Origin: Candidatus Thorarchaeota archaeon
GTDB taxonomy: Archaea; Asgardarchaeota; Thorarchaeia; Thorarchaeales; Thorarchaeaceae
Direction of reading: 5' to 3'
Assembly: GCA_020348985.1 (NCBI GenBank)
Contig: CP070761.1
Coordinates: forward strand, 2,571,912 to 2,635,911
DNA: 64,000 nt
Shown: positions 2,964-15,206 of the stretch, piece after piece
How positions within the stretch are numbered: position 1 is the first letter of the stretch
How the letters are laid out: every line of letters begins with the position of its first letter
The notes under the pieces: model-generated
Seen by the model: only the letters and a program-made list of their open reading frames with translations
Told to the model about the DNA's origin: nothing
Database searches by the model: none
Position numbers and translations under genes: made by a program

Positions 2964-4781
2964 CTAGGATTCGTCGTTCTTGGAGCTCTGACTGTCAAGG
3001 CGATTGTTCTCTTCAGATACACCATCATCTGTAGGTACTGTGTCGAGAATTCCCAATGCCCTTTCGAGGTCTGTACGCATCTTATCATCAAGATCTTCCA
3101 ATGGCTCTACCTCGCCGTCTAGAAGTACAACCTCCTCGCAAGAGAACGCTTCGAGGGCTGTTTCGAGTTCTTCTTTGGTTGCCTTTTCAATCTCTTCCGA
3201 TACTAGATCGTCTGCATCAAGAGCCTCCGATATCAGTGCGCGTGCCATCATCGATCCGTTTGATTCATCTGCGCTTGTCTCAATTTCGCTTTCTTCGATA
3301 AGAATAGGAACTGCCTCCTCAACTTCATCGTCAGATATAGTGACTACATCAAAGTCATCAGATGCTTCTACGGGGACCATCTCTGGTGCGATTCCTTCAA
3401 CAACCACATCATCTTCAACAGCATCTTGGACTGGTATCTCGATTTCACGCTCCTCCAAATCGGCTGAAAGCGCAGCATCAACTTCAATGAAGAATTCCTC
3501 AATGGCATCCATTTCTGAGACATCCGAAACAACAGGAGATTCTTCCGTCACAGCCGCCATGTGCTCTACAATCTCTTCTGTTACAAGATCCTCATCGAAG
3601 TGTTCAATCTCATCCTCAGCACCACCAACTTCAGGTACATCGGGGATAACAGAGGGTTCTTCAGCCACTACCTCGACAGGTTCCTCGAAAATTCCCTCGG
3701 CTTCTTCTGAGTCAGGCTCCACATCGACGTACTCAATAACTTCTTCAACGATTTCGTACTCATCTGCGTCCTCAATTATCCGACCATCTTCGTCAACGAG
3801 GATTTCTTCTACAATCTCAACTGTTTCGTATTCCTCTTCAACCTCTTCTTCTGAAACAGCAGAGGCTATTACCGCAGCTGCTTCGACAGCTTCTTCTGAG
3901 AACTTGAGCAGCTCAGAGGCTGGAAGATCAGGCAACGCCACTCCGACATACTGCGCAGCAGCTGTCATTAAGATGCGAAGCATCTCATCTCGACGGCCCT
4001 TGTCAATTGCAACCATTGGATAGGTCGGAATTCCTAATATCTTCTGAACCACCTCAGGTTTCATAGCATTTGGTTTGTCTTGCTTGTTAGCTATTGCGAA
4101 GACAGGAACCTTGGGTGCATCTCGCTTTATCAGTTTGAGAATGTCTTTGCTGATTATCACATTCCTTAGGGTTGAATCGCACACGAGAATGATAACATCA
4201 GCACCGTGGAAATAAAACCGCCAGAGTGTTCGGAATCTCTCTTGGCCTGCGAAATCCCACAGAACGAGTGAGTAGTTGCCGAAACGGATGTTCTCGACAG
4301 TCTCAAGGTTGAGTGCGATTGTAGGAACGTATTGAAGGGGAGGTGTGTCACCCAGGAGGAGATGAAGAGTAGTTGTCTTCCCTGTACCGCCCTCGCCAAC
4401 CAGCGCTATCTTCAGCCTAGTAACCACCGAAGGCTCGATTATCTCCTCGAATCTCTCAAGCACGCTATTTAGATCGGCTCTTTCAATCTCAATAGTAAGA
4501 TCGTGGGCTGCTTTCTTGACACGGTCTTGAGTGCTGAGCTCATCTTCACCCTTGTCTGTGACAAACACAAGAATTGAATCATCATTAACTTCGCTGCCCA
4601 TGAACTTGTTCTGATCGATCACCAGAGGAATATCCTCTAGTGCGTCATGGTTTTCCGCTAGCTCCTCTCTTGTTGAAATGTATTCTTCAATCTCGCTGGC
4701 CCCCACCTCAACTGGCCAGTACTGAACAGATGAGAGAATCTCATTGTCGTCCAGTCGGATAAGGAAGGCATTATGAATCAT
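2964..4781 (-). CDS. Arf-like small GTPase with N-terminal longin-like domain and long acidic C-terminal tail
   Basis: G1 GEGGTGKTT, G2 YVPT, G3 WDFAGQERFRTLWRFYF, G4 NKQDKPNAM; ~120-aa N-terminal domain; ~320-aa E/D/V-rich tail. Confidence 0.88.
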   Translation of the reverse strand: MIHNAFLIRLDDNEILSSVQYWPVEVGASEIEEYISTREELAENHDALEDIPLVIDQNKFMGSEVNDDSILVFVTDKGEDELSTQDRVKKAAHDLTIEIERADLNSVLERFEEIIEPSVVTRLKIALVGEGGTGKTTTLHLLLGDTPPLQYVPTIALNLETVENIRFGNYSLVLWDFAGQERFRTLWRFYFHGADVIILVCDSTLRNVIISKDILKLIKRDAPKVPVFAIANKQDKPNAMKPEVVQKILGIPTYPMVAIDKGRRDEMLRILMTAAAQYVGVALPDLPASELLKFSEEAVEAAAVIASAVSEEEVEEEYETVEIVEEILVDEDGRIIEDADEYEIVEEVIEYVDVEPDSEEAEGIFEEPVEVVAEEPSVIPDVPEVGGAEDEIEHFDEDLVTEEIVEHMAAVTEESPVVSDVSEMDAIEEFFIEVDAALSADLEEREIEIPVQDAVEDDVVVEGIAPEMVPVEASDDFDVVTISDDEVEEAVPILIEESEIETSADESNGSMMARALISEALDADDLVSEEIEKATKEELETALEAFSCEEVVLLDGEVEPLEDLDDKMRTDLERALGILDTVPTDDGVSEENNRLDSQSSKNDES

Positions 4782-4926: not shown

Positions 4927-5200
4927 GTAAGTAGGAGCGGGGCTCGCCCAGCCGAAGCTGATAGTGGCGAACCGTATCCGCATCCGTGACACGCTTTCAT
5001 CGGAGCATGCGAAAGAACTCAGTTCTTTATGCGCAAGTATTGGAGTGGCAATCTCGGGGAAGATGCCACAGGGGACCAATGCTTGGAAACTCGCTAGGGG
5101 GACCGTGCATTGCAGTGCGAGTTTCCATGACGGGGGGAAATCGCACATCCCGATAAGAGCAGTCAACATGAAGAGAGGCATACTGGCCTAATAACCTTAC
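4927..5200. ncRNA. Candidate structured non-coding RNA of unknown family
   Basis: Terminal pairing 4927-4935 with 5187-5200 encloses ~7 hairpins, including a perfect 11-bp stem (5084-5094/5117-5127) and a C(UUCG)G tetraloop on the minus strand (4949-4960). Confidence 0.6.
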
Positions 5201-5245: not shown

Positions 5246-6406
5246 TTACCGCGGGAAGTTGTCCCTCAGTAGTCTCAGATGATGGTGGACAAGCTCCATC
5301 TGCTTTGCGTCGTCAGGAGTCTTTTCAAGCTCCACGATTAAAGTCTGAAGGAAGTATTCGGGGAAGAATAATCGCACACGAATATCGTTAAGCAAGAAGA
5401 GCCATTTATCGTACTCGCCAGATGGTCCCTTTCTTCTCTTTTCGGAGACTACTCTGAATTTCTTTAGCGTCTGAACGGCTGTTTTGAGCTCCTTCGGAGG
5501 AATGCCCAGGGTAGCTTCTAGTTCGGATATATTCACTGGCCTACGTCGGAGGACTACTAGCGTGTCGTAGGCATCGGGATCAGCCAAGATTGAAGCAACT
5601 GATACAGTATCCTCAGGTGTCTTTTTCCATTCTGTGAGGAATTCGAGTACCTCTCGTTTGTACTCAGCGGCGAGTTCCGGATCCAGAACCTGATTTGCAG
5701 CCTCCATCGCCATCAGCGGAGGAGCACGGAAGACTTCTAGGTCCTTTATCATGAACACACAGGTCCGGCCAATTTCGTCGACCCATTCACTCTTGACAAG
5801 TCCGAGTTCCTCAAAGGGTGAGAGGATCGAATCGACACTGACGCTTGGAAGACCAGTTACCATCTTCAACCATTCTTCTAGCTCTTCTTTGGATATGCCA
5901 CCCTTCCAGAGCTTCGGAAACACGGCCCTAGAGACTTCCTCTGAAAAGAGACGAGCTAAGCGGCTCTCATCAGCCATTCCCGCGAGCCGGATGATCCTCC
6001 TGTAGGTGTTATCAAGCTCGCCCTGCAGCTCTGCATCAGTCATAGAAATTACTGCATTAGTTATGGGTGAGACGACCGATGTTATGGCCGCCTCAAACAT
6101 CTTGGGGTCTTCGCCTGTTGTAAGAAGCAGTGAGATGCAATACTGCTCCTCTTCACGAACAATACCAGTATAATATGATGCAACTTGGTATTCCTCTCCC
6201 CCAATCCTGACGCTCAGTGATGCAAAACCTGCAGTGGCGTCTCCCATGGCGTGAGATGTGAAGATCCTCATAATCTCTGTGTTCAAGTCCTCTCGGTATC
6301 CATCCGCAAAATTCGCGGGCACCTTAGTCTTGAGGACTGCTCCGATTTTGCTATCCCAATCTATCAACAAGAGGGCTACGGGCAAGTACAGTATCTCCTT
6401 GTCCAT
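5246..6406 (-). CDS. uDENN/longin-domain protein with C-terminal winged helices (NPRL2-like architecture)
   Basis: N-terminal LLLIDWDSKIGAVLKTKVP resembles the uDENN/NPRL2 beta1-beta2 motif (F.EFHPTLGPKITYQVP); two wHTH-like segments (ISKEELEEWL..FEELGLV and VNISELEATLG..LKKFRVV). Confidence 0.6.
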   Translation of the reverse strand: MDKEILYLPVALLLIDWDSKIGAVLKTKVPANFADGYREDLNTEIMRIFTSHAMGDATAGFASLSVRIGGEEYQVASYYTGIVREEEQYCISLLLTTGEDPKMFEAAITSVVSPITNAVISMTDAELQGELDNTYRRIIRLAGMADESRLARLFSEEVSRAVFPKLWKGGISKEELEEWLKMVTGLPSVSVDSILSPFEELGLVKSEWVDEIGRTCVFMIKDLEVFRAPPLMAMEAANQVLDPELAAEYKREVLEFLTEWKKTPEDTVSVASILADPDAYDTLVVLRRRPVNISELEATLGIPPKELKTAVQTLKKFRVVSEKRRKGPSGEYDKWLFLLNDIRVRLFFPEYFLQTLIVELEKTPDDAKQMELVHHHLRLLRDNFPR

Positions 6407-11964: not shown

Positions 11965-12492
11965 CTAAATCGTGGTCTTAGCAAGCTCTTGGAATGCCTC
12001 TTCTACGTTCTGACCGGTCAGAGCACTTGTCTCCAGATAGCCGTTGAGACCATTCTCTTCGACAAACTGCTTGCCCTCCTCCGTCGAAATGACTCGTTCA
12101 CCCTCGAGATCCACTTTGTTTGCCAAGAGTATAATGGGAATCCGTTCGTTCAGCGCATCTTCAGTTTCGGTGATCCACTTCGGCAATTCGATGAATGTGC
12201 TCTTCCGAGTGGTATCAAACACAAGCAGGGCACCCTTGGATCCACGGTAGTACGCGGCTCTGATGAAGTCGAATCGTTCTTGTCCAGCAAGATCCCAGAC
12301 GAGAAGCTTGACAACAACATCTTTACCGTTGTTCTTCTCTACTAAAACGGTCTTGACGGCGAACTGTGATCCAATCGTGACTATGTATTGCTCTGAGAAC
12401 TTGTTCGTCAGGAACCGATTGACGATGGCAGTCTTTCCGCTTCCACCGGCGCCTATCATTACCACTTTGCGCATGAAATCGAATTCCGACAC
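11965..12492 (-). CDS. Rab-like small GTPase
   Basis: GAGGSGKT, YIVTIG.QF, WDLAGQERF, YYRG, NKVD and ETSA; probable GTG start 12492 (track 12534); no C-terminal Cys. Confidence 0.93.
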   Translation of the reverse strand: MSEFDFMRKVVMIGAGGSGKTAIVNRFLTNKFSEQYIVTIGSQFAVKTVLVEKNNGKDVVVKLLVWDLAGQERFDFIRAAYYRGSKGALLVFDTTRKSTFIELPKWITETEDALNERIPIILLANKVDLEGERVISTEEGKQFVEENGLNGYLETSALTGQNVEEAFQELAKTTI

Positions 12493-12716
12493 GTTCTCCC
12501 AAACCTCAATCATTGATTCAAATACTTGCAGCATACAAGCTTTGGCTGGCCTTGTTGAAGGAGCTTGCTCTCGCTGAGTTGGCCGTGATGCTATTTAGTC
12601 TTTATTGGATTGCCCTTCTGGTTGTTGTCGGCCCTAGAGACTAGAAGCGCGACCAATAATGAGAAAACTTTCGTTGGAAGGCGCGGTATCGAGAGTATAA
12701 TCCATTCATCTCGAAG

Positions 12717-14375: not shown

Positions 14376-15206
14376 ATGAGATTCTCGGACTGCCAAAAAG
14401 CGGAGAAGCTGGCGGAAGAGAGGGCTAAAGAGGGACGCAACACAGATGCGACGAATCTATTCAGCAGAGCAGGTGATTGCTGGAAGAGATGGGAATCATT
14501 CGCCAAGGCGGCGAGAAGCTATGAGCGCGCCTATGAACACGCAATGTTATGTCAGGAGTACACTAGAGCCGCAGAATTGGTCATGGAAGCAGGCGAGACT
14601 TGGATTAAGCAGGGAGAATTTGAGAAGTTTGAAATTGACTGCCAGATCGCTTCTGAGGCATATGTTCTTGCAACCGAAGCAGAGCGTGACCCTGCTTTGT
14701 TCGTTGAGGGTGCCTTCTGTGCCATTCAGGGCGGAGATCTCGAGATGGCCAAACAGCTGATTCATGCGGCATCAGAAACAACACGTGGACAGCAAATGGA
14801 ACGCATCAACCTGGCTTTGATGTTGAGTGAGTACGACTTTGGTGATGCGGATCGGTATATCGATGGCGCCGTCGTGAGGGTCCTGGACAGAGACGGAATA
14901 CGAAGGACTCGAAGAGCATTCTCTCTTGTCTTTGCAGGCTTTGTTCGCACCTCTCTTGAATCAGAAGCCGCGGTTACTCTGGCGAGTTTGGCAGAGAGCA
15001 CAGGGCTTGACACACACAAACTGAAAGAACTCGTTGAAAGAGGGATTGAGGAAGGGATTATTCCTGCGTTTCTCGATCCGGAAACGCAAGAACTTGTAGT
15101 TGATGCGGATCGCTTTGATGTGTCTAGCCTAGCGCGTCGCAAAGGACCAATAATGAGCAGAGACCTGGAAGACCCTGGTGCGTGGGACGTCGACCTTGAA
15201 GACTGA
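14376..15206 (+). CDS. alpha-SNAP/TPR-like solenoid with C-terminal PCI winged-helix domain
   Basis: DATNLFSRAGDCWKRWESFAKAARSYERA (SNAP-like); VTLASLAESTGL..LVERGIEEGIIPAFLDPETQELVV (PCI-like). Confidence 0.7.
   Translation: MRFSDCQKAEKLAEERAKEGRNTDATNLFSRAGDCWKRWESFAKAARSYERAYEHAMLCQEYTRAAELVMEAGETWIKQGEFEKFEIDCQIASEAYVLATEAERDPALFVEGAFCAIQGGDLEMAKQLIHAASETTRGQQMERINLALMLSEYDFGDADRYIDGAVVRVLDRDGIRRTRRAFSLVFAGFVRTSLESEAAVTLASLAESTGLDTHKLKELVERGIEEGIIPAFLDPETQELVVDADRFDVSSLARRKGPIMSRDLEDPGAWDVDLED

Follow-up and report, generated by a model that had tools for sequence, protein, structure and literature searches.

The window (the whole stretch of 64,000 nucleotides analysed here, contig CP070761.1, positions 2,571,912 to 2,635,911) carries on its minus strand an open reading frame, 5246..6406, for a protein with a longin domain followed by tandem winged helices. 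The frame spans 386 aa from the ATG at 6406 and probably 379 aa from the TTG at 6385; the latter was taken as the probable true start because homologues begin at the eighth codon (MPV..., 379 aa) and AAGGAG lies 9 nt 5′ of this TTG. Residue numbers (W10, D11, G15, R77 etc.) refer to the 379-aa form. Translation of the minus strand confirmed that the reading frame is real and contains the motifs quoted in the original prediction. The closest homologues are Thorarchaeota (Thor) proteins of 379 aa (80–96% identical), followed by proteins of other Asgard lineages (~30%). Two 151-nt contigs (depth 2) from one marine metatranscriptome cover 5531–5828, too little to show transcription, and a sigma-70 promoter scan gave chance-level scores with a model that is unsuited to archaea.

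The neighbouring gene on the same strand, 2964..4781, encodes the candidate partner, a 605-aa protein with a longin-like domain, an Arf-like GTPase domain (Pfam Arf, E 2.5e-22) and an acidic tail. Its N-terminal domain (4428..4781, aa 1–118) is fast-evolving and longin-like by secondary structure; fold searches were filled by matches of the G domain. The G domain (3942..4427, aa 119–280) is of Arf type, with intact P-loop, switch-I Thr, DxxGQ and NKxD (G1–G4 and the catalytic Gln), and carries VAID in place of the usual G5, a signature of its clade. The top Foldseek match of the protein was the Asgard GerdArfR1, and Pfam Gtr1_RagA stayed below cut-off. The tail (2967..3896, 310 aa) is of low complexity with 36% D+E and 3% K+R, and is lacking in most non-Thor GTPases that adjoin members of the query family (the family of ORF 5246..6406). 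The neighbour is of the same kind as the Asgard Arf-like GTPases (AArf/ArfR; PMC11914678, 10.1101/2024.02.28.582541) and the longin-GTPase fusions already described for Asgard archaea (PMC10933270). Elsewhere in the window, a Rab-like GTPase of a different clade (11965-12534, minus strand; Pfam Ras, E 1e-49) lies 5.5 kb from ORF 5246..6406, and the product of 14376-15206 (plus strand) has a SNAP/TPR-like N-terminus and a faint PCI match (E 0.019).

A gap of 464 nt separates the two genes and holds a conserved structured non-coding RNA of roughly 230 nt (4928..5159, minus strand; fold z −3.6 on the gene-sense strand). Two-sided changes were found in 14 of its 27 predicted pairs, and CCCCGUC, CUUGCnCA and GGAnGC are invariant blocks; the gene-sense strand also has UUCG and GAAA loops. 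The RNA is single-copy in 23/26 Thor-family genomes, was found in none of the other families searched and had no Rfam match. Assignment as SRP RNA was rejected because in two Thor relatives the SRP RNA lies elsewhere (no archaeal SRP RNA was detected in the present genome, a single 3.16-Mb contig that is 86% complete, although relatives have one), and assignment as RNase P RNA because RNase P RNA was found elsewhere. A tie to the 3′ end of ORF 5246..6406 was also dropped: insertions of genes occur both before and after the RNA, which therefore looks like a separate RNA gene. Co-transcription of the pair is doubtful, since 464 nt and the RNA separate the genes and some genomes have insertions as long as 2.9 kb.

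Domain architecture and likeness to NPRL2/3

The AlphaFold2 model of ORF 5246..6406 (mean pLDDT 89, pTM 0.81) begins with a longin and a linker helix, continues with two winged-helix units and ends in closing helices. Strands and helices follow the longin order in model residues 10–141, and two helix-helix-helix-strand-strand units occupy model residues 145–218 and 263–337. The longin N-domain and the two winged-helix-like units that had been proposed from the letters alone were both recovered in this way, the former by topology and by VIA-align (uDENN/NPRL2-type longin, residues 1–136, 5978..6385, minus strand; Z 12–14). The best VIA-align match of the longin was a Loki longin (8yqg, Z 13.9, rmsd 2.5, 132 residues aligned), and the GATOR1 chains 9o5d_D (Z 12.9) and 7t3b_B (Z 12.1) aligned over 127–128 residues with an rmsd of 2.7, this comparison covering the longin only. 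Lower scores were obtained for the FLCN complex (8dhb_J, Z 11.2), DENND1A (Z 10.1) and C9orf72-SMCR8 (Z 8.8); SNARE or adaptin longins also scored below the GATOR1 chains, in a Z 9–11 group with the FLCN complex and DENND1A. On the predicted structure, NPRL2 (Z 12–13) is the best eukaryotic structural match of the longin. A full-length Foldseek search, which the original prediction had proposed against NPRL2, FLCN and DENN proteins, ranked GATOR1 first: the top three matches were to GATOR1 chain C (E 2e-4 to 7e-4, TM 0.17–0.27, rmsd 15–23), and since the TM is about 0.2, GATOR1 shares the domain order, not the overall geometry, with the query. In an Atlas feature search with the longin domain alone, the top archaeal cluster scored 0.92 (Pfam NPR2 on 19% of members) and the best eukaryotic cluster 0.77 (NPR2 63%, C9orf72-like 16%), the latter being a lead only.

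Sequence comparison gave no match of this kind. Pfam NPR2/NPR3 gave no match above cut-off in the query or in any of 103 family members, neither phmmer nor a profile matched GATOR1 in the PDB, and searches of Pfam, NCBIfam and the PDB, with Pfam NPR2 and Folliculin run over the whole genome, returned no eukaryotic link above cut-off. An NPRL2 orthologue by sequence was ruled out (no Pfam NPR2 match, no GP motif, an Arf-like and not a Rag neighbour). As modelled, the family is built like NPRL2/3, which is a likeness of fold without sequence membership. NPRL2 and NPRL3 (GATOR1; yeast Npr2/Npr3; GAP for RagA/Gtr1) share the N-terminal longin with the query (Z 12–13), which in these proteins is followed by repeated C-terminal winged helices (PMC3747258); both they and the query have at least two such repeats and an arginine in the beta4-beta5 loop. 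The query differs from them by its low identity (8–13%), the absent GP motif and the Arf-like neighbour, and GATOR1 has a second longin subunit and DEPDC5, neither of which was identified for the query.

The first winged-helix unit (residues about 139–212; 5750..5971, minus strand) was delimited by its DSSP pattern. The second (residues about 257–331; 5393..5617, minus strand) has an ArsR-like fold (VIA-align Z 9–10.6) and a profile match to PH1932 (E 6e-5); its NCBIfam ArsR score of 19.6 bits against a cut-off of 55 marks this as a fold match only, outside the ArsR/SmtB family. Atlas structure rows matched residues 140–345 with tandem HTH proteins. Unlike in the tripartite DENN proteins (C9orf72, FLCN and Avl9 among them), no cDENN or dDENN follows the longin of the query, where the region was positively modelled as winged helices.

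Linkage of the family to one GTPase clade

A profile of the query family found 546 representatives at 50% clustering and matched 115/151 Asgard genomes, Loki genomes having as many as 11 matches; among those searched, Heimdallarchaeaceae (0/13) and Sifarchaeia (0/5) gave no module. In Thor, the GTPase lies within 3 kb of the query gene in 55/56 informative loci. Nearly every Thor genome keeps the block from rtcB to ino1, 12 kb being syntenic and tmk, ssb and rtcB kept too, and Thor-only synteny was dropped as evidence of a link because these housekeeping neighbours are equally syntenic. Across Asgard archaea, a family member was found <1 kb from a longin-fused GTPase in 9/17 families sampled, in four arrangements (GTPase downstream, upstream, divergent or convergent). 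The other flanking genes are replaced across those families, except ssb in one of them (f12), which shares this gene with Thor and hence is not independent. Of the 26 adjacent GTPases, 25 belong to a single clade (SH-aLRT 99). In the present genome this clade accounts for only 5 of some 30 small GTPases, and both full-length family members adjoin one of them. By Asgard family, both genes are present in 16, neither in 8, the query family only in 3 and the GTPase only in 0; kin share losses, and the families with neither gene may reflect only two or three losses. In eight families, a query-family protein stands without an adjacent GTPase at the copies examined. Cross-lineage adjacency, a dedicated GTPase clade and matching distribution are, like fold and motifs, computational observations; with them the genes are linked well outside Thor, and the cognate pairing proposed in the original prediction is supported as a functional link, the query itself being a candidate regulator.

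The second pair of this genome, L002:635-2595 (C1:1911780-1913740), consists of a divergent family member (24% identity, without the WD motif) that overlaps a tail-less longin-Arf GTPase by 4 nt. The pair adjoins a 775-aa coiled-coil protein; the C-terminus resembles, by eye, the tandem winged helix of ESCRT-II Vps22/36. A small membrane protein with the tail motif of the surface proteins described below lies about 4.6 kb away. Two more longin-fused GTPases of the partner clade occur without a partner gene, one (C1:926654-928591) after two large coiled-coil-like ORFs and the other (C1:996623-997630) upstream of ribosomal protein genes.

Across Thor, identity is 82–91% in every part of the query and 93% in the G domain; tmk is at about 60%. 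A mirror-tree analysis with one pair per lineage was not significant (r 0.22, p 0.14), and comparison of the query-family and GTPase profiles gave a probability of 5%. The complex prediction that had been suggested as a check returned no interface and scored 0.36 against 0.00 for the best control, graded as weak support. Its runs shared 75% or more of their contacts, and the pLDDT of the partner was 83 or higher. That mark was reached by 58/80 solved complexes and 2/110 mismatched pairs, of which only 7/80 solved complexes but both mismatches lay at 0.60 or below.

Candidate role and alternatives

The protein of ORF 5246..6406 is probably a cytoplasmic binding partner and regulator of the neighbouring GTPase, the two genes forming an old Asgard module, and physical partnership with the product of 2964..4781 is probable to the same degree. 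The conserved beta1-beta2 face of the query longin (W10, D11 and G15, with H45 and S70–Y72) would bind the G domain directly, as in longin GAPs, rather than pair with the GTPase's own longin; the winged helices may serve as a protein-binding scaffold. Paralogues are found on, or fused to, the short tails of giant surface proteins, and for this reason the module probably sets the GTPase's nucleotide state at the membrane, which for the query copy would follow from its relatives only. Within this regulator reading, a role as non-catalytic adaptor or effector is doubtful and one as GEF distinctly unlikely.

The family alignment contains a W10-D11-x3-G15-A16 motif in the beta1-beta2 hairpin (6338..6358, minus strand). 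The tryptophan is kept in 91/103 members, the aspartate in 85/103 and the glycine in 99/103 (WDxxxG in 75/103, GP in 14/103), and these three residues, H45 and S70–Y72 are among the conserved surface residues of the family's longin. In C9orf72 (W33-D34...G38-P39) the WD motif stands five residues before the G of GP and is essential for Arf GAP activity (PMC12290439); the WD-x3-G spacing is equal in the query, which however has G15-A16, without proline. The GP motif before beta2, a feature of the catalytic subunits of longin GAPs (NPRL2, FLCN, SMCR8, Avl9), is thereby absent from the query.

Longin GAPs are defined by an arginine between beta4 and beta5 (Avl9 preprint, 10.64898/2026.01.05.697756). 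In the model of the query, R77 (6155..6157, minus strand) falls in the beta4-beta5 loop, between E70-78 and E88-94, and is a candidate arginine finger; by this modelled loop position it can be matched to R78 of NPRL2. The two arginines presumably also have equal spacing to beta5, which was not used as evidence. R77 is present in 43/43 Thor and 21/21 next-closest homologues and family-wide in only 14/103. It also occurs in the Atabeya-type clade, the f12 clade and two Loki members with a GP motif; its occurrences form four patches of the family tree that do not follow GTPase adjacency. GAP activity through R77 cannot be the family-wide function, since most relatives, many of them adjoining a GTPase, lack the arginine. 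For the query itself, R77-dependent GAP activity is overall a tentative possibility. The fuller proposal, a native archaeal GAP of the NPRL2/C9orf72/Avl9 class with R77 as true finger, WD motif and finger on one chain, and a place in a surface-protein/small-GTPase module, is tentative too and a shade more doubtful.

The Arf GAP C9orf72-SMCR8 (CSW) and FLCN-FNIP have the longin fold in common with the query (FLCN complex, Z 10–11), and its candidate substrate is Arf-like; CSW splits WD motif and arginine over two subunits, whereas the query has both on one chain, and the DENN C-terminal domains of C9orf72-SMCR8 and FLCN-FNIP are replaced in the query by winged helices. The monomeric DENN Arf-GAPs Avl9, DENND6 and DENND11 (10.64898/2026.01.05.697756) combine, as the query does, a single-chain longin with a beta4-beta5 arginine and act on an Arf-family GTPase, but grip its switches by a cDENN domain that the query does not have.

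A second possible role is suggested by the paralogues, many of which abut genes for single-pass surface proteins (860–2200 aa) with a conserved basic tail, often with overlap of stop and start; in one protein of 2661 aa, ectodomain, membrane helix and tail are joined to the whole family module. Abutting and fused surface proteins taken together (860–2600 aa) carry Ig-like and laminin-G domains, and directly inside the membrane they have a conserved basic helix. In Atabeya-type and Loki genomes, genes for a surface protein, a family member and a GTPase also stand together as runs of three. Because paralogues are translationally coupled or fused to surface proteins in this way, an adaptor role is about as probable as GAP activity and a serious rival or complement: the query would dock on the juxtamembrane helix of giant surface proteins, with the GTPase at most an indirect member of the pathway. 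Its own genome encodes four membrane proteins with the juxtamembrane tail motif and no adjacent family member (3994, 1294, 632 and 184 aa; C1:1437343-1449327, 2239261-2243145, 1271731-1273629 and 1906604-1907158), as compared with only two full-length family members. Against this role, no surface-protein gene lies beside the query copy in any Thor locus examined, and the surface-coupled members in other Thor genomes form a separate subfamily. We regard docking of this kind, within a pathway for trafficking or placement of giant surface proteins, as unlikely; it is compatible with regulation of the GTPase, and both may hold. In two further proteins (P0140, P0158) the family module is fused to a SIR2-like domain and TPR repeats.

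For the favoured partnership with the GTPase, the mode of contact was considered from conservation. The original prediction had suggested a possible longin-longin heterodimer; in such a dimer the query would pair with the N-terminal longin-like domain of the GTPase and form a platform for the G domain. The query has a longin and the GTPase a longin-like N-domain, dimers of longins form the usual platform for GTPases (PMC3747258), and nearly all adjacent GTPases keep the N-domain. Across 26 Thor orthologues, however, the N-domain of the GTPase is only 42% identical, as against 87% for the query longin and 93% for the G domain, and it aligns poorly in Atabeyarchaeia. Because the GTPase longin drifts and the G domain and query (82–91%) stay, direct contact with the G domain is favoured, and the heterodimer appears improbable.

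That the protein instead regulates through DNA or RNA, with the longin as input domain and the winged helices binding nucleic acid, perhaps the neighbouring RNA, is very improbable. The ArsR-like second winged helix, database annotation as an ArsR regulator, a basic wing in Thor and the conserved RNA downstream of ORF 5246..6406 would fit such a role. The recognition-helix surface, on the other hand, is unconserved in the family (top residue 17–38%), and retention of core leucines only argues against a shared DNA target; the NCBIfam score is far under its cut-off, the module is fused behind a membrane helix in relatives, and the RNA is limited to one Thor family whereas the protein/GTPase pair is Asgard-wide. 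Mere inheritance of gene order without functional link, which the rtcB to ino1 block could explain within Thor, is hardly credible in view of adjacency in four orientations with different flanks in nine families and of the second paralogous pair in the same genome.

Earlier work and related longins

NPRL2-like longins (Liu et al., 10.1101/2020.10.19.343400) and GP/arginine-finger longins (PMC12290439) of Asgard archaea have been described; they are of the same longin class, from the same organisms as the query, and neither source names a GTPase partner or a surface-protein link in the parts consulted. The family of Liu et al. (most Thor, few Loki) is narrower than the query family (115/151 genomes), and it may be a different Thor longin and winged-helix group with a faint NPR2 C-terminal match. 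GTP hydrolysis by Asgard Arf-like GTPases is slow, and PMC11914678 states that the native regulators of these GTPases are unknown; according to PMC10933270, the order of genes in MK-D1 is of no help in assigning regulators to GTPases, and PMC12290439 leaves open which partners the Asgard GAP-like longins have. In comparison with the AArf/ArfR and longin-GTPase papers, a dedicated GTPase clade is here matched to a candidate regulator, and in the literature searched we found no paper pairing the query family with the GTPase clade or with surface proteins. Through its association with this clade, the query family is a testable candidate for the regulator of one group of Asgard Arf-like GTPases, and the locus offers a defined pair, both proteins small and probably soluble, with point mutants at R77, W10 and D11 for direct assay. 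If the assignment is true, longin-based GTPase control would have existed before eukaryotes. NPRL2 ancestry would not follow, because the module was not found in the Heimdallarchaeaceae and Sifarchaeia searched and several Thor families combine a longin with winged helices.

Two Loki members of the wider family (L134:5243-6475, L135:4986-6056) have F-H-x3-GP and an ARGG loop and come closest to the FLCN/SMCR8 motifs, with a faint Folliculin match (E 0.07); no small GTPase was found within about 5 kb of either. A separate Thor longin and winged-helix group comprises L160:2-1246, L162, L163, L164 and L165 (C1:2454468, 1546744, 1543768, 2384803); L160 has a faint Pfam NPR2 C-terminal match (E 0.015), and the group possibly contains better relatives of the NPRL2 C-lobe or heterodimer partners. 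A related longin at L003:1090-2424 (C1:1539711-1541045) carries the full WD-x3-GP motif and is fused to a TackOD1 output domain (Pfam, E 8e-17); fusions of this kind to two-component-related domains are noted by Liu et al. (10.1101/2020.10.19.343400).
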